Source of the DNA: Chrysomallon squamiferum
Lineage: Eukaryota > Animalia > Mollusca
Direction: 5' to 3'
Length of the DNA: 64,000 nt
NCBI GenBank assembly: GCA_012295275.1
Contig: CM022667.1
Coordinates: forward strand, 11,160,001 to 11,224,000
Below are positions 39,853 to 63,998 of the stretch, in pieces. The notes beneath the pieces were generated by a model, which saw only the letters and a list, made by a program, of their open reading frames with translations, ran no database searches and was not told the origin of the DNA. The position numbers were made by a program, and so were the translations under genes. Every line of letters begins with the position of its first letter. Within the stretch, counting starts at the first letter, position 1.

Positions 39853-40358
39853 CTCTCTGTTACTCTTTCTCTTTCTCTGTTTTCCCATCAATAGAAATAC
39901 ATTTATATATCATTTCTTTTATAAGTAATTCATACTTACCAAGACAAATGATTGAAAAACAAACAAATACATAAATATTTTTAAAAAAAACATAATTTTG
40001 ACAAAGCAATACATAAATTTAAAACAAATTAATTCACAAAATAGAAATCTATAAACCAATAAACCCTTAAACCGACAAACTCATAAGCCTACAAATCTTT
40101 AAGATACCAAAATGCCTAACAAATTATACATACAAACCAACATATGAAGACACTCACACACAAGAATAGTGAAAACACAAAGTATAAAACGCATAATCAA
40201 ACAAAACCATAAACGCACGAAACCAGCAAACCCACAAAATTCCTAAACACACAAACACACAACCACGGCAAAGACATTTCAATTATAAGCCGCTGCCTGC
40301 AGCAAATGTTGCCTTGTTCTTTTCCAGCTCTTGGTCAAAGTGCTTTCTCTCATTTCAG

Positions 40359-40501
40359 GTTTTGCCGCCAGCGCCAGAGACATGGTAAACCTACGAAGGG
40401 ATCTCTTCTCCAATTATAACAGAGGAATCGTTCCCGTCCATAACCAGAGCGAGTCAGTGCAAGTCCAGATGTCCTTCTTTCTCATCATGATTCATGAGCT
40501 G
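40359..40501 (+). CDS. nAChR-like Cys-loop receptor, exon 2 (FAASARDMVNLRRDLFSNYNRGIVPVHNQSESVQVQMSFFLIMIHEL)
   Basis: Typical LGIC N-terminal helix L..DLF..Y....P. Acceptor TTTCAG (alternative at 40327) and donor GTGAGT at 40502. Confidence 0.9.
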
Positions 40502-40828
40502 GTGAGTTTTGAGGACGGCTGGTTTCATGAAGATAAAATACAAATGAAGGAAGGGAGTCAGGAAGGAAATAGAGAGGAAAAATAGAGCAAGGAGGGATTC
40601 TGGGATATATATATATATATAAATGATGAAGGAATAAATGAGGGATGAATGGACGGAGTGAAGGAAGGATGGATGGAGGGAAGAGAAGATAAGGGAGTTG
40701 ATGGATAAATACATTTTCATAGGCTGAAAAGCACGTTACTCCTTTTATAAACTAGCGAGAAGAAAAAAATAATTAACTGACTGAATAATAAGTGTCTGAT
40801 TCCTTATGTGAATGAGATCGAGAAGATA

Positions 40829-46770: not shown

Positions 46771-46890
46771 GTCTTTCTTTATTAATTTTATAAAACTAGA
46801 TTCATTTCTCCCAAGGTATTTTTTTTTGCTCAATACAGATTAAGGGATTACTCTTACGATATTACTTATACCGACCACCTCTGTTTTCAG

Positions 46891-47000
46891 GAATGGTGGG
46901 ATCAGTTTCTGAAGTGGAACGCGTCTGACTATGGTGGTATTGACGAGGTGATCGTGTTTCAGAGGGATGTTTGGCTTCCTGATCTCTTTGTGGAAAACAC
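46891..47000 (+). CDS. nAChR-like receptor, exon 4 (EWWDQFLKWNASDYGGIDEVIVFQRDVWLPDLFVEN)
   Basis: 110-nt phase 0/2 exon with the W.D..L.W...YGGI and W.PD motifs. Confidence 0.95.
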
Positions 47001-47447
47001 GTAAAAACATTTATCTCCATCTCCGTCAAAATAAAGAATGGAAATGAACGAATGAACTCTGTTTACTTTTTTAAACTTAGTGGTTATTACAGAAGAATTT
47101 TTTTATTTTTTTTTATTTTTTAATTTTTTATTTTTTTTCTGAAATAATATGGATGGAGTTTCTAATGGATAATGTTTATAATGATGATAAATGTCATTAC
47201 AAAGGGCGCCTACGTTTATATTATCTGCAGCATTAAAATAAGAAACAATGGTTTTTTTGTTTTTGTTTTGCACAAACCACTGATAAACCCAGTTAATACT
47301 GCTTTTATGATTATTAACAGTAGTATTAGTAGAAATACTAGTAATGTCAAACAAAATGAACAAACTATGAAAACACAATTAGACTATTTTCTTGTGTGAC
47401 ACGAAAGAACGCTGTACACTACTTTGTTCTTTTTCTCCCATGCTCAG

Positions 47448-47989
47448 GGCTCAGAGTTACCGAGAACTGGGCAACGACGCCATGTTGATCAGCGTCAAGG
47501 ACGACGGCCTCATCGTCTGGGAGCCGGGGATCGTCGTGGAGACCAGCTGCGCAGTCAACATCATGAAATACCCGTTCGACTCCCAGGTGTGCGACATTCG
47601 CTTTCTCACGTGGATGCACACGAACAGAACGCTGAGCGTGAAACCGGGACACGACTACATCCACCTCGACGCCACGCTGCCGAACGGCGAGTGGGACATC
47701 ACGCAGACGCGGGCCAAGCACTACACGTACCCGTCGACGTACCGGCTGGGCACCCACCACACCGGCGTCAGGTTTTTCGTGCATCTCAGGAGAAAAAGGA
47801 CTTTCTACATTTTGAACACTATCATTCCCGTGGTGATGCTGTCCCTGCTGAACGTTCTGGTGTTCATCCTGCCGGCGGACTGTGGAGAACGCATGGCTCT
47901 GGCCGTCACGGTTTTGCTGTCCTTTACGGTGTATCTTGGCATCATTAGTGACGTGATGCCCAAGACATCGGAGAGTCTTTCCGTTCTAG
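47448..47989 (+). CDS. nAChR-like receptor, exon 5 (Cys-loop, loops B and C, M1, M2)
   Basis: Cys-loop CAVNIMKYPFDSQVC, NGEW, pre-M1 LRRK, M1 FYILNTIIPVVMLSLLNVLVFILP, M2 GERMALAVTVLLSFTVYL, MPKTS. Phases 2/1 fit the neighbouring exons. Confidence 0.97.
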
Positions 47990-48078
47990 GTAATTTATAG
48001 TTTAATTACTGATACTATATCATTTGTCACCATACTGATCTGTAGCAGAATATGCTTTTATAAGCGCACCCACACATC

Positions 48079-48193
<115 letters not shown>

Positions 48194-48462
48194 CATATAT
48201 ATTGCATTATTTTTACAGAGTTTATTATTATGCTATCCAATTTAAATAGTATTACTTTACATAACGCCAATGCTTCAAAACTGCTGAATGATTCACACCA
48301 AGATAAATAAAATTTTGTGACAAAGAACAAAAAAAGATTAATGACAATCAAACAGTTCCAAATATACATCGTTACATTTTGAAATTATTATGTCTACACG
48401 CTGTCACACATGCACCAGTGTTAATTTATACTAATTTATAACAAAACAAAAATGTATTTCAG

Positions 48463-48923
48463 CCGTGTACCTGACCTCACTTCTGTCTATCAGCACTTTG
48501 TCCGTGGGTTGTGCGGGCGTCGTTCTGAACATCCACCACAAGGACCCGGACACGGCGATCCCCAGATTCGTGAAATACTTCCTCGGGGGACCCAAGACGC
48601 GACACCCTCACGTTCGGGACAAAATCTCGGACACAGAGAACATGAACCAAGAGACTATAATCATTCACACGCAGAGGAAGATCAAGGAAGACGCGGTCGA
48701 CTGCAAGTGCAACGAGAACGGGGACACTGAGATGAACAACGTGGCCGTTCACTGCCCTCCTCCGCACGAGTGCTCGAGACTGGTGCGCGAGGTCGAGGAC
48801 GTCAGGTCACTGGACGTCACGTGGCACGTGATAGGCAAGTCGTTGGACGGGGTGCTGTTCTGGGTTTTCTTTATCGTGACGAACACAATTACAGGGATAG
48901 TTCTCTCCCTTTTCATTAGCTGA
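48463..48923 (+). CDS. nAChR-like receptor, last exon (M3, cytoplasmic loop, M4). Full join 8017-8071, 40359-40501, 43893-43937, 46891-47000, 47448-47989, 48463-48923 = 1356 nt, 451 aa
   Basis: M3 ends VVLNIHHK, followed by W..IGKSLD.VLFWVF and M4, then TGA. AATAAA at 48994-48999. Confidence 0.96.
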
Positions 48924-53724: not shown

Positions 53725-53762
<38 letters not shown>

Positions 53763-53915
53763 GACGATGGAGTATTTATAAGGCACGGTATGCACGTGTA
53801 TTTCGAGCGACATATACAAGAGCAACTATCGCCAAATACTGTGTCAAGTTCATTTCACGTCAGTGACATATCGCCGGAGTTTACAGAGACCCTGAGACTG
53901 AATAATTATAATATC

Positions 53916-53993
53916 ATGGCACACGTTGTTGTTCTTGCTGTTGTTGCATTAGCGTTGGTGTTGTCATGGTGGCGTGTAGAGTGTAACATTCAA
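53916..53993 (+). CDS. ZP-C-domain membrane protein, exon 1 (signal peptide MAHVVVLAVVALALVLSWWRVECNIQ)
   Basis: Hydrophobic signal sequence and a phase-0 GTAAGT donor at 53994. A TATA-like TATTTATAA lies at 53773-53781. Confidence 0.8.
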
Positions 53994-54641
53994 GTAAGTG
54001 TATTTACATTTGTTCATTAACAACTGTTCGTTTGTATCTAACAAATACCAACAGGGAATCGTGAATTATGTACCCAAGAGATGAGTTTTTAACCATCATG
54101 GCAAGATTAGTATGTTTCAATATTTTTTTTTTTTTTTTTTAAACCGTATTGGTAAGAAAAACCGTCCGCTGATGTAAAGATTTAACTGTCCTTGACAATG
54201 TTGGGGTTAGGAAGTGTCGCACATACGTCTGCTTGTACTTTTTATTTTTACTGATGTAGGCAGGTTTCAAATGCTTGAATAAATTAGTTCTGTGTTGTCG
54301 GCGGATGATCCGGTCTTGCATTGCTTTTAGCCGGTCGGTAATATTGTTAGGGATTTTTGCCAGCAGTTACAATGAAAAATTGATAACCTAATTCTGTTCG
54401 TTTGTCTACCAAAGGAATAAAGTGTTCTGTAAGTGAAAGTGTGGATTGCGAATTTATCACGCACTTTTAACTAATGGTTACTGTTTGTACTTTATGCATA
54501 GAACCTTCTTAAGTATTCTAAGGATTTGATTAATTTAAATAATAATAATAATACTTTAAAAAAAAGTTGTAGTAATAGTAGGAGAGGCAAAAACAGTTTA
54601 ATAATAATAATAATTATAATAATAATAATTATGGTGGTGGT

Positions 54642-54709
<68 letters not shown>

Positions 54710-54853
54710 TCTCATAGCCAGTTCGAGTCAATATTATTATTATTTTTTTTTTTTGATCAATTAATAAACTAATTGAATTATTATTATTATTATTTTTTAA
54801 TCGAAGAGACGACGAACGAACTTAATTTAGATATAAATTTTGTGGTATTTCAG

Positions 54854-55588
54854 AACGTATCGCTTCTTGAAGATGTCGACAAAACTTCAAGTAACTCCAA
54901 AGTAAAGGTTACCGTTCAAATAACCGATGTTGACGGGCGAATATTTGGAAAGGACTCGGTGCCATTTGGAACAGACATTAGACTGAAGCTGGCATCGGAT
55001 GACAAGAACAAAATGGTGTCAGTTATCCCATACTGGTGCCAGCTCGTATCTCTGAAATCAAAACGAGGGCTTGTCATTTTGCAAAATGGCTGCGGAGATG
55101 GCGTTATCTTTCCTCCAACCAGTGGATTTATTATTGACAAAGGAGCAGCCATTAGTCCGGTGTTCAGGGCATTCGACTTTTCTGACGACAATCACGTAAA
55201 ATTCCGTTGTAAATACGTAACAAGCTCGTCTGTCGACTTCAACAACTCCTGTAACAACCGATCATCTTCGTATGTTCTCAAAACTGGCAGTTTATTTCCC
55301 AGAGATCAACCATCATCGCCGGCACATGACAAGGGAGATGATTCTGTGTCACCTCAATCTGTGGAGACCAGAGTTATCGGTCTTAGGCTTCCAGAATATT
55401 CGTCGACTCCAAACGACAAAAACTCGTCGTCGACAACAGATGTTGAATACGTGAATTATCCGCTTTATCTGCGCAGACTGATGTTTATATTGGCTTTCTT
55501 TGGACTTTATCTCTTCATTATTGCCGTCTTTATTTCTTTGCAGATCGAGCGGAACAAGCTAGAGAGTCTCAATAAAATCAGTGTATAG
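54854..55588 (+). CDS. ZP-C-domain membrane protein, exon 2 (vitelline-envelope ZP / VERL-like C-terminal module plus TM helix); 270 aa in total
   Basis: Phase-0 TTTCAG acceptor. The motif ILQNGCGDGVIFP..GF…SPVFRAF…V.F.C resembles abalone vitelline-envelope ZP proteins. A Ser/Asp-rich stalk precedes the TM segment LMFILAFFGLYLFIIAVFISL. Confidence 0.85.
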   Translation, partial: NVSLLEDVDKTSSNSKVKVTVQITDVDGRIFGKDSVPFGTDIRLKLASDDKNKMVSVIPYWCQLVSLKSKRGLVILQNGCGDGVIFPPTSGFIIDKGAAISPVFRAFDFSDDNHVKFRCKYVTSSSVDFNNSCNNRSSSYVLKTGSLFPRDQPSSPAHDKGDDSVSPQSVETRVIGLRLPEYSSTPNDKNSSSTTDVEYVNYPLYLRRLMFILAFFGLYLFIIAVFISLQIERNKLESLNKISV

Positions 55589-56173: not shown

Positions 56174-56817
56174 AACATGATCCTGTTCATCTCGCTGAAT
56201 TAAAAATAAAATAAAATAAAAATAAAAAAATTAGAAGAGGAAAGCATAAATGAGTAATAAAACAAAATTCAACTGACGTAAAAACAGCAACAATCGATTT
56301 AAAGATCTGTGAGTCATACCAAAACTCTTTTCCCAAATGACTGTGAAATGACGCAGCATGTTTTTAAAATACTTTTATTTTACTGTAACTACGTCAGCGC
56401 TGTGACGCATGGCGTCTGTTTTCACATATTTTTCCCGAACTGGCATGTTCCCAACTGGGTCGATTAAAAGCAGTAATCCATGGTAATAAAAATAAATGTA
56501 CCTCGATGCTCTTGGATAAGGCGGTAACTTATATTTATAGAGGCAAGAAGTATTATAAAATTAAATAACAATGGTGATCATACATTCTGTTGTGTCCTGT
56601 TTATACGCCTTTTAAATCCATACTATTCTTAATTTAGTTTTTCTTTAAATATATATATCTACAGTTAACCCATACATTAAAAAGTACGAATGAATGCATG
56701 AATAAATGAATGAAATAATAAATGAACAAAATGATCTTAATAATTAAACTCTTAATCAAGAGTTTTAAATATTAAATGCTGGATTAAATTTTAGCATTTT
56801 TATTTAAGTTTTTGTTT

Positions 56818-56896
<79 letters not shown>

Positions 56897-57292
56897 GAGG
56901 AGGGTGCGAGAGAATCTGCTTGAAAGGGGGAAGGAGAGAGAGAGCGAAAGAGAGAGAAAGAAAGAGTGAGAAAAGCAAGTGAAATAGAAAATGGAAACAT
57001 GATACTGTTCATCTCGTTAAATCAATAATTAAAAGAAAATAAGAGAGAGAGAGACTTTCGCTTTGACTTTTACTGTAACTACATCAGCGCTGTGACTCAT
57101 GACGTCTGTTTTCACATATTTTTCCCACCTGGCATGTCCCCGACTGCGTCGATTAAAAGCAGTAATCCATGGAAATAAAAACAAAAGTTTTTGAAAACAT
57201 TTCTCAAACCCGGACACAACTCGACAACCAATCAAACAAACATCCCGGATTAATGACCTCGGGGAAACGTCCTGTTTCGCCGCTATAAAAAA
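56174..57292 (+). repeat. Duplicated upstream block, copy 1 (modules X1 56174-56482, Y1 ~56483-56821, AG tract, X2 plus promoter)
   Basis: Near-identical sequence recurs at 60342-60650, 62442-62777 and about 63190-63998. Confidence 0.93.
57093..57290 (+). promoter_or_regulatory. Proximal promoter of the toxin-like gene: AP-1 (57093), CRE-like (57100), CCAAT (57228), kB-like (57261), TATAAAA (57284)
   Basis: Motifs are visible and the TATA box is 67 nt before the ATG. All motifs are conserved in the second copy at the window end. Function is inferred. Confidence 0.6.
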
Positions 57293-57350: not shown

Positions 57351-57573
57351 ATGAAGGTTTTTCTTCTCATCGCCGCAGTTGTGTACGTCTGCACTGCTGC
57401 GACTTCAACGACCACCACGGCTCCCGATGTTTCAACGAGCTCCGCCGATCCACAAGTGAATGACGTCAAAGACAAATCGGAACTGTATGACGGAATCGAT
57501 CTGAATACTTTGACGGAACAGGAACTCAAGTTACTTGCTGATGCCGAAGATGAAGTATTTATCGGAGAGTTGG
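57351..57573 (+). CDS. Secreted prepro-protein with CdiA-CT-like toxin domain, exon 1 (signal peptide + acidic propeptide)
   Basis: MKVFLLIAAVVYVCTA signal, then a Thr/Ser- and Asp/Glu-rich segment. Phase-1 donor G|GTAAAT at 57574. Confidence 0.88.
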
Positions 57574-58034
57574 GTAAATTCTGTTAAAGTTTTTTTTCTT
57601 CTTCTTTTCTTTTCTTTTCTTTTCTTTCTTTTTTTTTTCTTTTTTTTTTTTCTTTCTTATTTTGTTCTTGTTCTTTTTGATCCATGAATTTTGTAAATGC
57701 TTAAAGACAACAATTTAAAAATCACTGAAAATCTTGGTACATGGGTAGTTGTAATACTGAATTCTTGCTGTTCTTGCTCTATAAATATCTACGGAAAGAG
57801 ATTACTGAAGTAAAGAATCACGTGAGATGAAAACTGTAAAAAGAACATTCATGGTAGCCATCTTTCTTTCTTTCTTTGCTGTTGTTGTATTTGTTGTTAT
57901 GAAGATTATTGATGATGATGGTAGCTGGTGTTAATGTTATCATAATCATCATCACCATTATCATTATTTAACTATTATTAGTATTATTATTGTTGTTGAC
58001 GTTCTAGTTGTTGTTGTTGTTGCAAGTATTATTA

Positions 58035-58102
<68 letters not shown>

Positions 58103-58219
58103 TCTTTTTATTACTTTATTCTATTCTTCTTCTTCTTTTTCTTCTTCTTCTTCTTCTTCTTATTATTATCATTTTAAAAAATAATAGCAGCACAAACATA
58201 AACAAAAATCATGATGATA

Positions 58220-58291
<72 letters not shown>

Positions 58292-58327
58292 GTTATTATT
58301 ATTGTTATTATTATTTGTTTTTCACAG

Positions 58328-58489
58328 ATATCTGGGGAATTAAAACGGGTCTGAAAGAGAAAGGGCGAAGAGAAAAACGGTGGATTTCTTCCCTCATGTC
58401 ACTGGGCAGAGTCTTGTTCCGCGGAGCTTCAAGAGGAGCTCTTTCGAGAGGTTCAAAAAAACGTCTTACAAGACAGTACTATAAGCAAG
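58328..58489 (+). CDS. Secreted prepro-protein, exon 2 (RREKR site + start of the cationic mature region)
   Basis: TTTTTCACAG acceptor, phase 1/1, encoding IWGIKTGLKEKGRREKR|WISSLMSLGRVLFRGASRGALSRGSKKRLTRQYYKQ. Donor CAAG|GTAAAT. Confidence 0.9.
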
Positions 58490-58544
58490 GTAAATGAAAG
58501 AATGAATAAATGAACTGTTGATGTTATTATTGTTATTATTATTA

Positions 58545-58591
<47 letters not shown>

Positions 58592-59454
58592 GTTATTATT
58601 ATTATTATTATTATTATTGGTGGTGGTGGTGTTAGTAGTATTAGTATTAGTATTAGTATTAGTAGTAGTAGTAGTAGTAGTAGTATAACAGTTACAGTTG
58701 TAGTAGCAGTAATAGCAGCAACAAACGTCGTAGAAGTACCAGGTGCAGCAGTGATGTTTATTCATTCATTTACTCATTTATTTATTTATACACAGTTCTA
58801 AATATAACCTATACTTAATGTAACGGTTGCTAACAGCAAACATCTGAAATCGTTAAATTCACTGACCAACGTCACAAACCTTAAATAGCAATTAAAGTTA
58901 GAAAATGTCTGAGATTATAAAATTCAACAGACAAATATAATGTACGTATGCAAAATATTTTATGTAGAGTTTATTTTCCCTTCCTTAGTGTCTTTTTTTA
59001 TTTTTATAAAATATTTCCTGTAACCAACTTAAACGCTCTGAGGTTTTTGAAACAGTAACATACAGAGACGCTCCTTTCACTATTCTAGGTCTACTAATAT
59101 CATTTTTTACGGTTTCCTGCTTCCGTCAGGGCTAAGCTGTGACGTGCATATGTAACATAAACCTTAGTTAATAAGCTTGTAACTCTTACTAGAGATCTAA
59201 TGATATATCTTCCTACAGAAACAGGATGGGCTCTTTCAAACTGCTATAGCTTCTGATTTCCGTGTTTGTTAGACATAGCTGACACTGAATAAAAAAAAAT
59301 TTATTTTATTTTTTTAATTTTTTTATTTATATAGAAGCAGTAGTGGCAGCTGCAGCAGTAGTGATAGTAGTAGTAGTAGTAGTAGTTGTTGGTTGTGTTA
59401 TTGTTACACTGGAAATGTATATACAAAACAAGCATAATGTACACGCAGATGTCC

Positions 59455-59506
<52 letters not shown>

Positions 59507-59681
59507 AACACAGGTCGCTTAGACATACGCGCACACACACACGAACACACATATACTCAACAATACACACACAAACGAATACAAAAACACAAATTCTGTA
59601 ATTCAGTATCTGTTTAGGACATTAAAGCAGAAGATTACAATTTGAAAACATTGACTAAAAATAATTTCATTTATTATCCAG

Positions 59682-59899
59682 GTGGCTACCGAAGTGCTCT
59701 GCGTGACTTCAGCAGACTGAAGACTCAAGGAACGAAACCGTTCACAGGCAACAATGGTCTCCGTGGATACACCGGGCGTATTGGAAACCACAAAGTTACC
59801 GTTCGTAACAGCAGCAGCAAAGGAATTCCCACCCTGGATATTCGTTCTCCCAGACCAGGAAAACACTCTTTTACAAGAAAATTTAGATACCAGAATTAG
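59682..59899 (+). CDS. Secreted prepro-protein, exon 3 (CdiA-CT-like core). Join 57351-57573, 58328-58489, 59682-59899 = 603 nt, 200 aa
   Basis: TTATCCAG phase-1 acceptor, then GGYRSALRDFSRL…GYTGRIG..KVTVRNSSSKGIPTLDIR…RKFRYQN and TAG. Confidence 0.9.
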
Positions 59900-60341: not shown

Positions 60342-60650
60342 AACATGATCCAGTTCATCTCGCTAAATTAAAAATGAAATAAAATAAAAATAAAAAAATT
60401 AGAAGAAGAAAGCTAAAATGAGTAATAAAACAAAATTCAACTGAGGTAAAAACAACAACAATCGATTTAAAGATCTGTGAGTCATACCAAAACTCTTTTC
60501 CCAAACGACTGTGAAATGACGCAGCATGTTTTTAAAATACTTTTATTTTACTGTAACTACGTCAGCGCTGTGACGCATGGCGTCTGTTTTCACATATTTT
60601 TCCCGAACCAGCATGTCCACGACTGCGTCGATTAAAAGCAGTAATCCATG
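60342..60650 (+). repeat. Duplicated module X3 (copy of 56174-56482)
   Basis: Nearly identical over about 310 nt and ends at the transposon target site. Confidence 0.93.
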
Positions 60651-61000
60651 GGTGTCTTCCCATTTGGTAGAATTCCCAGTTCGTATAATTCCCATTTCGT
60701 AGAAAAAGCTGGTTTACCGCAATACCTGATTACCTCTGTATATAATGAACTTGGCCTGTGCATACATCTGGTTTCTTTCTAACATTCAGAGGGGGAGGGG
60801 GGCGCATTGTTCCTAAATCGATTATGTAACATCAACCAAAAGCAGAATAAGCATTCACAACTCATTTGTTGTTGATTTGTTACTTTTTCATTATTTCATC
60901 ATCTTCCTCCTCATTAACATCAACATTATTATTATTATTATTGTTATTCTTCTTATTCTTCTTATTATAATTACTGTTACTATTATTATTATTATTATTA

Positions 61001-62433: not shown

Positions 62434-62441
62434 AATCCATG

Positions 62442-62773
62442 TAGATAAAAACAAATGTCCTCGATGCTCTTGGATAAGGCGGTAACTTATTGTTATAGAG
62501 GCAAGAAGTATTATAAAATTAAATGACACTAGTGATCATACATTCTGTTGTGTCCTGTTTATACGCCTTTTGAATGCATACTATTCTTAATTTAGTTTTT
62601 CTTTAAATATATATCTACAGTTAACCCATACATTAAAAAGAACGAATGAATGCATGAATGAATGAATGAAAAAATAAATGAACAAAATGATCTTAATGAT
62701 TAAACTCTTAATCAAGAGTTTTAAATATTAAATGCTGGATTAAATTTTAGCATTTTTATTTAAGTTTTTGTTT

Positions 62774-62777
<4 letters not shown>
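62442..62777 (+). repeat. Duplicated module Y2 (copy of ~56483-56821)
   Basis: Alignment to block 1 resumes immediately after the right TSD. Confidence 0.92.
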
Positions 62778-62841
<64 letters not shown>

Positions 62842-63189: not shown

Positions 63190-63490
63190 TGATGCTCCTG
63201 GGTTTTACGGTAGTAGAGACAAAGAAGTATTATAAAATTAAATAACGATAGTGACCACACATTCTGTTGTGTCCTGTTTCCGTACTTTTTAAGTGTATAC
63301 TGCCTACACAATTCTTAATTTAGCTTTCCCACTAAATATTATGTCTACAGTAAACCAGACATCAAAATCAAGGAGTGAATGCAAGAATGAATGAATCAAT
63401 GAATGAATGAAACAATAAATGAACAAATTAAATACTGAATGTTAAATACTGGATTAAATTTTAACATTATTATTTTAGTTTTGTTTTAAT

Positions 63491-63583
<93 letters not shown>

Positions 63584-63998
63584 TATGTGTGTGAATGGGG
63601 CAGGGTGCGAGAGAATCTGCTTGAAAGGGGGAAGGAGAGAGAGAGAGCGAAAGAGAGAGAAAGAAAGAGTGAGAAAAGCAAGTAAAATAGAAAATGGAAA
63701 CATTATTATAATTCATCTCGTTAAATCAATAATTAAAAGAAAATAAGAGAGAGAGAGACTTTTGCTTTGATTTTTACTGTAACTACATCAGCGCTGTGAC
63801 TCATGACGTCTGTTTTCATATATTTTTCCCGAACCGGCATGACCCCGACTGCGTCGATTAAAAGCAGTAATCCATGGAAATAAAAACAAAAGTTCTTTGA
63901 AAACATTTCTCAAACCCGGACACGCCTCGACAACCAATCAAACAAACATCCCGGATTAATGACCTCGGGGAAACGTCCTGTTTCGCCGCTATAAAAAA
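63190..63998 (+). repeat. Diverged module Y3 + AG tract + X4 and a second copy of the toxin-gene promoter (TATAAAA 63990-63996)
   Basis: 63593-63998 closely matches 56892-57292, including AP-1/CRE (63797-63810), CCAAT, GGGGAAACGTCC and TATA. Confidence 0.92.

Follow-up and report, generated by a model that had tools for sequence, protein, structure and literature searches.

The 64,000-nucleotide stretch of the Chrysomallon squamiferum genome analyzed here (contig CM022667.1, positions 11,160,001 to 11,224,000; the whole stretch is called the window, and coordinates are given within it) carries a three-exon gene whose product ends in a domain related to the C-terminal toxin tips of bacterial polymorphic toxins. 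The gene lies on the forward strand and is made up of the following parts.

57351..57573, plus strand: coding part of exon 1, with a hydrophobic, signal-like start (approximately residues 1 to 17, judged by eye), a Thr/Ser-rich linker, and the conserved acidic core of a propeptide
57574..58327, plus strand: intron 1, phase 1, GT-AG, rich in microsatellites
58328..58489, plus strand: exon 2, with the end of the propeptide, a furin-type site, a cationic amphipathic N-terminal helix, and the first strands of the mature domain
58366..58380, plus strand: predicted furin-type cleavage motif RREKR, after which the mature domain would begin at W93 (58381)
58490..59681, plus strand: intron 2, phase 1, GT-AG, interrupting the codon of the invariant Gly129
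59682..59899, plus strand: exon 3, a helix and a strand meander, with R170, S173, P178-T179-L180-D181, K195, R197, and Y198

Joined in frame, the three exons encode 200 amino acids followed by a stop codon, in agreement with the original prediction, which had been made from the bare sequence. Both donors read GTAAAT, and both acceptors end in AG and are pyrimidine rich. Three alternative in-frame splice combinations were found in the ranges tested; the donors of the one chosen are better, and its product aligns collinearly with a RefSeq protein of Gigantopelta aegis (P0004), which it matches at 59% over 76 amino acids in exon 1, 43% over 56 amino acids in exon 2, and 77% in exon 3. The exons have a GC content of 45 to 48%, compared with 27 to 38% in 2-kb bins of the window. 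Residues 18 to 74 carry a net charge of −11. A residue count upheld the composition described earlier for the mature part: the 108 amino acids that follow RREKR include 25 basic residues (9 Lys and 16 Arg), 2 Asp, no Glu, and no Cys, for a net charge of about +23. Intron 2 was found to lie within the domain, as proposed, and the glycine whose codon it splits (G129) is invariant in animal and bacterial relatives alike.

Splicing at the second junction is seen in RNA of a near copy. Among four runs compared, one contig, from run X21 (297 nt, depth 3.85), fits the window from position 59680 onward, with 9 differences over 102 nt, and the final 30 letters of its 195-nt loose end resemble the end of exon 2 (23 of the 30 agree, in a count by eye). 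This contig comes from a paralog or a close relative (about 91% alike), so that splicing was seen for a near copy and not for the exact copy. Neither exon 2 nor exon 3 was covered by runs X22 and X23, and X21 did not cover exon 2 at 80% likeness. Of the two junctions proposed, then, the second is crossed by a contig of a near copy, and for the first, the predicted position is taken from the Gigantopelta ortholog. Two further gene models, P0027 (from Candidula) and P0012, appear to read through introns at the places of both window introns: P0027 reads through the donor at the intron 1 site, and the homology of P0012 starts at the intron 2 point. These models hint at common intron positions, as judged from protein sequences, not DNA.

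We attach practically no weight to the idea that the locus is an assembly artifact or bacterial contamination. The idea might draw on the finding that no RNA contig identical to the window copy was present among the contigs examined, but it runs up against microsatellite-filled GT-AG introns, to which the original prediction had already pointed, and animal neighbors on the flanks (a nicotinic-receptor-like gene and a VERL_C protein gene), and it is refuted by the collinear mollusc orthologs, which lie on scaffolds of up to 95 Mb.

The kinship of the mature domain with bacterial toxin tips, first proposed from a residue pattern, is supported by strong profile and structural similarity. An hhalign comparison of the animal with the bacterial alignment gave a probability of 99.3% (E = 9.3e-21, 83 columns), whereas the Ntox21 and Ntox37 controls reached at most 0.3%. 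A hidden Markov model (HMM) built from animal sequences only found 21 of 22 bacterial domains at 35 to 59 bits, the best of 4,400 shuffles scoring 13, and exon 3 of the window alone scored 30.3 bits on the bacterial HMM. In the ESM Atlas, the structure matches at a template modeling score of 0.71 to 0.75 were MafB, CdiA, and PT-VENN clusters. The same polar residues recur on both sides when counted over 32 animal-type and 17 bacterial sequences (window numbering is from our own alignment): R is kept in 32 and 16 of these, respectively, S in 31 and 17, P in 31 and 17, T in 30 and 17, and E in 29 and 17, and on the last strand K is kept in 31 and 16, R in 31 and 17, and Y in 29 and 17. Conservation of this kind suggests that R, S, PTL[E/D], and K-x-R-Y are likely active-site residues retained in both groups. 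The toxin-like domain belongs to no Pfam or NCBIfam family on either the animal or the bacterial side, and searching the PDB by sequence, with single and profile queries, returned repeat-protein noise only. The particular CDD labels first proposed for it (CdiA-CT_5T87E_Ct and CdiA-CT_Ec-like) could not be substantiated: the PDB gave no sequence match, 5T86 fell within the structural background, and 5T87 was not among the structural matches. The 5T87 family itself does exist (described in the accessible part of PMC9111745).

On the bacterial side, tblastn with the Gigantopelta protein gave weak matches (E = 8e-4 to 0.5) to the C terminus of three sequences, namely, a haemagglutinin/PT-VENN CdiA-type protein, a Neisseria MafB cassette, and a phage PT-TG protein, and it also matched two Vibrio phage sequences. 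Starting from one bacterial seed, we reached 18 genome loci. With a mixed profile, matches were found in 5 of 401 genomes of one phylum sample and in 4 of 401 of another (the center genome is counted in each), which puts the toxin-like domain with its putative immunity gene in about 1% of the genomes sampled in the two phyla. Taken over all loci, no fewer than four bacterial phyla have the domain in toxin-immunity loci, on several types of carrier. Wherever the open reading frame (ORF) could be read, in 20 loci, the domain terminates it. Of 13 domain-bearing ORFs, 5 have an RHS carrier, 1 an LXG carrier with PT-TG, 1 MafB, and 1 DUF4244, and no carrier was recognized in the remaining 5; a haemagglutinin with PT-VENN and a PT-TG protein are further carriers. 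An earlier word-indexed search for longer proteins with the animal profile (7,996 candidates of 379 to 2,000 amino acids) had found none, a false negative, since tblastn recovered such carriers. One of the loci, L002 (NZ_CP119142.1), is labeled as a plasmid, yet at 2.17 Mb and with a maf island it looks like a chromosome.

Of 25 ORFs downstream of the domain, 23 (13 of 15 outside the seed) belong to one acidic family of putative immunity proteins of approximately 125 to 143 amino acids that spans four phyla (an example is L004, 3289-3690); the neighbors at L024 and L026 are unrelated. None of five of these proteins tested reached an NCBIfam cutoff, neither of two matched Pfam, and the one compared with the PDB had no match. 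The bacterial relatives sit, as polymorphic-toxin tips do, at the extreme C terminus of unrelated carriers ahead of a conserved small gene predicted to confer immunity, and this pairwise organization is known for polymorphic toxins (as described in the accessible portions of PMC3482391 and PMC4287609). Mollusc proteins scored below 0 bits at best against the HMM of the bacterial immunity family.

In animals the domain belongs to a mollusc family. Searching 1.84 billion representatives with exon 3 returned 29 proteins at E ≤ 0.001, of which 19 could be assigned to a species, all of them gastropods or bivalves, and 1 was a spurious repeat protein. The species include vetigastropod, neomphaline, caenogastropod, and heterobranch snails and three bivalves, from land, fresh water, and the sea, and a profile search added further gastropods. 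Every species-assigned eukaryotic match is therefore a mollusc, and a broad eukaryotic distribution, which would have spoken for vertical descent, did not emerge. Metagenome scans and one viral scan with animal queries gave no match. Because the family is spread over land, freshwater, and marine molluscs, the earlier suggestion of symbiont control has to be narrowed to a local use at most.

Family members share a common layout of signal-like start, variable acidic linker, conserved acidic block, furin-type motif, and a cationic domain of approximately 105 to 113 residues in most members; of 32 proteins scanned, 29 have an [RK]-x-[KR]-R motif ahead of the domain. Two members depart from it: P0022 (Candidula) apparently has two furin-type sites with a basic helix after each, and in P0034 a proline-rich repeat region replaces the acidic propeptide. 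Copies stand in tandem in several species, judging from adjacent locus numbers in Haliotis, Bradybaena, and Sinanodonta, and run X20 yielded two more diverged copies of exon 2. Between window positions 59717 and 59746, five of the six codons that differ from the X21 contig change the residue, which hints at diversifying selection between copies, as far as one contig of depth 3.85 can indicate.

We consider it very probable that the mollusc domain originated in bacteria. In a 102-column tree that compares 32 animal-type with 22 bacterial rows (the window protein is represented by its Gigantopelta relatives; the partial or broken L018-L021, L025, L030, P0012, P0027, and P0033, the spurious P0031, and near-duplicates were excluded), a single branch with support of 100/99 parts the animal from the bacterial rows. 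The tree is unrooted with a long stem and fits one origin of the animal family; taken with the species range, it points to a likely single capture from bacteria before the split between gastropods and bivalves. We infer the direction of transfer from distribution, because the domain is widespread in bacterial toxin loci and narrow in its animal range. The locus also shows features of domesticated toxins, namely, integration into the genome with spliceosomal introns, transcription (of the copy that is about 91% alike), and a range that is restricted in eukaryotes and wide in bacteria. If there had been no transfer at all, the protein would be an old eukaryotic one that was widely lost, a small fold reached by convergence, or the animal source of the bacterial copies. 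An unrooted tree whose animal rows are not nested within bacteria and a limited sampling of other eukaryotes leave some room for this, but we judge it very improbable: the sequence match exceeds, in strength and in length, what convergence would give, and toxin-immunity loci in at least four bacterial phyla stand against species-assigned eukaryotic matches that are all molluscs.

The fold offers clues to the likely chemistry. AlphaFold2 models are confident (mean predicted local distance difference test [pLDDT] scores of 84.9 for P0004 and 92.3 for the domain-only P0029) and show, in order, a helix, a hairpin, a helix, and a strand meander. The residues kept in both kingdoms fall on R170 at a strand end, S173 in the next long loop, PTL-E/D at the start of the next strand, and K195, R197, and Y198 on the last strand. 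In the models, this topology and placement fit the text description, without superposition, of "BECR-like" nucleases. Histidine is recurrent but not universal in that group (10.64898/2026.08.28.747851, in the accessible part), and PMC12994826, in the part available, gives BECR families by name only. Ntox47 appears among weak ESM Atlas neighbors (0.82), a lead only; a scan of 350 genomes for Ntox47 produced one broken copy, from which no profile comparison was possible, and hhalign showed no profile link to Ntox21 or Ntox37. VIA-align listed nothing at Z ≥ 8, and 5T87 and the canonical BECR nucleases were not among its listed matches, which does not exclude them.

Teneurins descend from bacterial YD-repeat toxins, and the closest structure to our model (m5856a8ab43b5) is the teneurin ABD (PDB 6fb3_A, residues 2621 to 2712), with Z of 7.3 to 7.8, a root-mean-square deviation (rmsd) of 2.4, 81 to 84 of 101 residues aligned, and 11 to 13% identity; the next unrelated fold has Z of 5.4. 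The ABD, whose limits we took from the accessible text of PMC5851990, may descend remotely from a toxin tip of this kind, although a Z below 8 can also reflect a common arrangement. The resemblance bears on a rival explanation in which the domain is bacterial in origin and has some nonantibacterial role, as an extracellular binder or degrader of nucleic acid (in mucus, eggs, or digestion), an anti-eukaryote effector, or a signaling ligand like the toxin-derived domains of teneurins. Captured toxin domains have indeed been turned to signaling in animals (PMC3482391, accessible part). Tandem expansion, fast divergence of copies, and the prepro-cationic layout would nonetheless fit an effector driven by conflict better, and we regard a nonantibacterial role as unlikely.

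What the animals appear to have added is charge and a propeptide. Mature parts in animals carry net charges of +5 to +25, compared with −5 to +12 for bacterial tips, and the propeptides are mostly acidic, with an acidic block that is conserved across the family alignment. An amphipathic N-terminal helix is present in all 16 animal sequences scored (hydrophobic moment, 0.53 to 0.80; 0.8 in the window copy). An acidic propeptide, a furin-type site, and a cationic, cysteine-free mature part make up the usual layout of antimicrobial peptide precursors. The window copy has each of these, with its charge near +23, and it is conceivable that a domain of bacterial origin now kills or binds microbes as such a peptide would, through its cationic surface and its helix, with the old active site reduced to a structural role. 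The residue-changing codons seen against the single low-depth X21 contig would suit this account as well. We find it somewhat unlikely: animals and bacteria conserve the polar residues of the strands equally despite the very long branch between them, a constraint not needed if the protein only attacked membranes, and the corresponding bacterial helices are amphipathic too (moment, 0.36 to 0.76), so that the signal is partly just the fold.

The propeptide is predicted to bind the mature domain. Modeled without alignments, the two parts of P0004 gave a score of 0.69, compared with 0.01 for the best of 3 controls, although propeptide and domain are oppositely charged parts of one chain and the controls were not charge matched. 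In benchmarks, 51 of 78 solved complexes came up to the mark, as did 2 of 108 mismatched pairs; for eukaryotes the figures were 39 of 65 and 2 of 126, respectively. Separate runs share at least 89% of contacts, the partner pLDDT is at least 82, and no similar solved complex was found that the model could be recalling. Confident contacts involve the N-terminal helix, the hairpin, and the last loop. Since the predicted interface does not include the conserved polar residues, the propeptide may be a chaperone or charge shield, a role that fits at least as well as blocking of the active site.

Putting these strands together, the reading we lean toward, at a shade above an even chance, is that the gene is a toxin-tip homolog that was captured once before the gastropod-bivalve split and acts as a secreted antibacterial enzyme. 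The signal peptide is predicted to route the precursor into the secretory pathway, where the acidic propeptide would fold onto the cationic domain, keep it soluble and harmless in transit, and so replace the lost immunity gene. Cutting at the furin-type site RREKR would then release the strongly cationic domain with its amphipathic N-terminal helix. The helix would do the work of the bacterial delivery carrier, letting the domain attach to microbial envelopes and pass through them, and the retained R/S/[E/D]/K/R/Y cluster would attack nucleic acid, most likely RNA. The fullest version of this reading, an enzymatic antibiotic, common to the whole phylum, that delivers itself and kills bacteria from within, in which the propeptide stands in for the immunity protein, the furin cut for arming, and the cationic helix for the secretion machine, we put forward as a tentative possibility.

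Besides the charge of the controls and the placement of the propeptide interface, several observations weigh against the antibacterial-enzyme reading. No activity is known for any family member, bacterial or animal; the best structural match, the teneurin ABD, is not described as an enzyme; and no solved nuclease emerged as clearly close, Foldseek returning no match at E ≤ 0.001 for either model. No His column is conserved at 80% or more in the animal or the bacterial group, and the window copy itself has Asp (D181) at a position where 29 of 32 animal-type and all 17 bacterial sequences have Glu. A further difficulty is how a protein of 12 kDa, already folded, would get into the bacterial cytoplasm. 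As to the capture, 9 of the 29 exon 3 matches carry no species name, the animal-side searches were too insensitive to reach bacteria and could also miss diverged copies in other eukaryotes, and no donor emerges from the unrooted 102-column tree with its long stem.

No description of the mollusc family was found in the literature, going by titles and the openings of abstracts, and six family accessions were absent from papers, within a survey whose coverage of subscription journals was thin. The word "toxin" does not occur in the accessible part of the Gigantopelta genome preprint (10.1101/2020.09.23.308304), which states a lack of prokaryote transfer, and the main text of the BECR-like preprint (10.64898/2026.08.28.747851), as far as available, does not mention molluscs or animals. 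This is probably a new toxin family, probably acting inside cells, that has been rebuilt as an animal prepro-protein, and its bacterial family may already appear in the supplementary tables of the latter preprint.

Two features upstream of the gene and beyond it point to a further copy.

57284..57290, plus strand: TATA-like box, 61 bases upstream of the start codon, recurring at the end of the second promoter copy
63214..63998, plus strand: second copy of the upstream region (56538-57292), including the TATA-like box, at 84% identity over 806 columns

There is no second coding copy within the 64-kb window, and the repeated promoter makes it likely that a tandem paralog starts just past the window end. 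Other repeats surround the gene. The segment 56475-56883 recurs at 62434-62839 (96%), and a repeat of approximately 120 bases occurs four times (56378-56499, 57068-57188, 60546-60651, and 63772-63893; mutual likeness, 90 to 93%), sitting downstream of a GA microsatellite where this was read; it may represent a short mobile element or else a regulatory block that the sites have in common. Farther upstream, positions 46786-48920 hold exons of a nicotinic-acetylcholine-receptor-like ligand-gated channel (PF02931 and PF02932), of which an earlier exon may lie near 40289-40582, judged by eye, and positions 53730-55588 hold a gene with a VERL_C (ZP-type) domain (PF25272, E = 1.5e-25) and a C-terminal hydrophobic segment.

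To our knowledge, the animal defense genes that derive from interbacterial weapons act at the cell surface, as wall amidases, lysozymes, or pore formers. If true, a captured tip whose likely site of action is inside the target cell and whose probable active site has been kept in snails and clams would be a different route to an immune effector, and it raises the question of how a toxin that needs a bacterial machine for delivery and a protein for immunity works without either. An unnamed bacterial toxin-immunity pair thereby gains its first animal relatives, and farmed and pest molluscs yield a small, cysteine-free candidate antibacterial.

Among known systems, the bacterial polymorphic toxin tips (Rhs, CdiA, MafB, and LXG) share a homologous domain and identical conserved residues with the mollusc form, which differs in having no carrier and no immunity-like part, in its introns, and in being far more cationic. 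The CdiA-CT toxins of PDB 5T86/5T87 are likewise small alpha/beta CdiA tips, and 5T86 aligns over 72 to 76 residues (Z, 4.1 to 4.5; rmsd, 3.6), but the mollusc domain has no sequence match to them and the 5T86 structural score lies within background. With the BECR-like superfamily (Ntox47-related predicted nucleases; 10.64898/2026.08.28.747851), the shared order is strand, helix, strands, long loop, strand, and last strand, with conserved residues flanking the loop, whereas the mollusc/bacterial domain lacks a conserved histidine; this comparison draws on the wording of the accessible part of that paper only. Within molluscs, biomphalysin, glabralysin, and the bivalve phage lysozyme are other captures (PMC3605176, PMC8047071, PMC7016736, and PMC5303276, in their accessible parts). 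Biomphalysin and glabralysin (PMC3605176, PMC8047071, and PMC7016736) likewise belong to bacterial-type toxin families active in snail immunity, but they are large beta-pore-forming proteins, to which, from what is accessible of these sources, no relation of the small mollusc domain was found. The closest precedent is the domesticated amidase effectors (dae), derived from the tae toxins of the type VI secretion system (10.64898/2026.03.13.711553, accessible part), which are also interbacterial toxins captured by animals, secreted, duplicated, and antibacterial. They attack the cell wall from outside, whereas the mollusc domain is an unrelated C-terminal tip, probably intracellular in its target, that comes with an acidic propeptide and a furin-type site.

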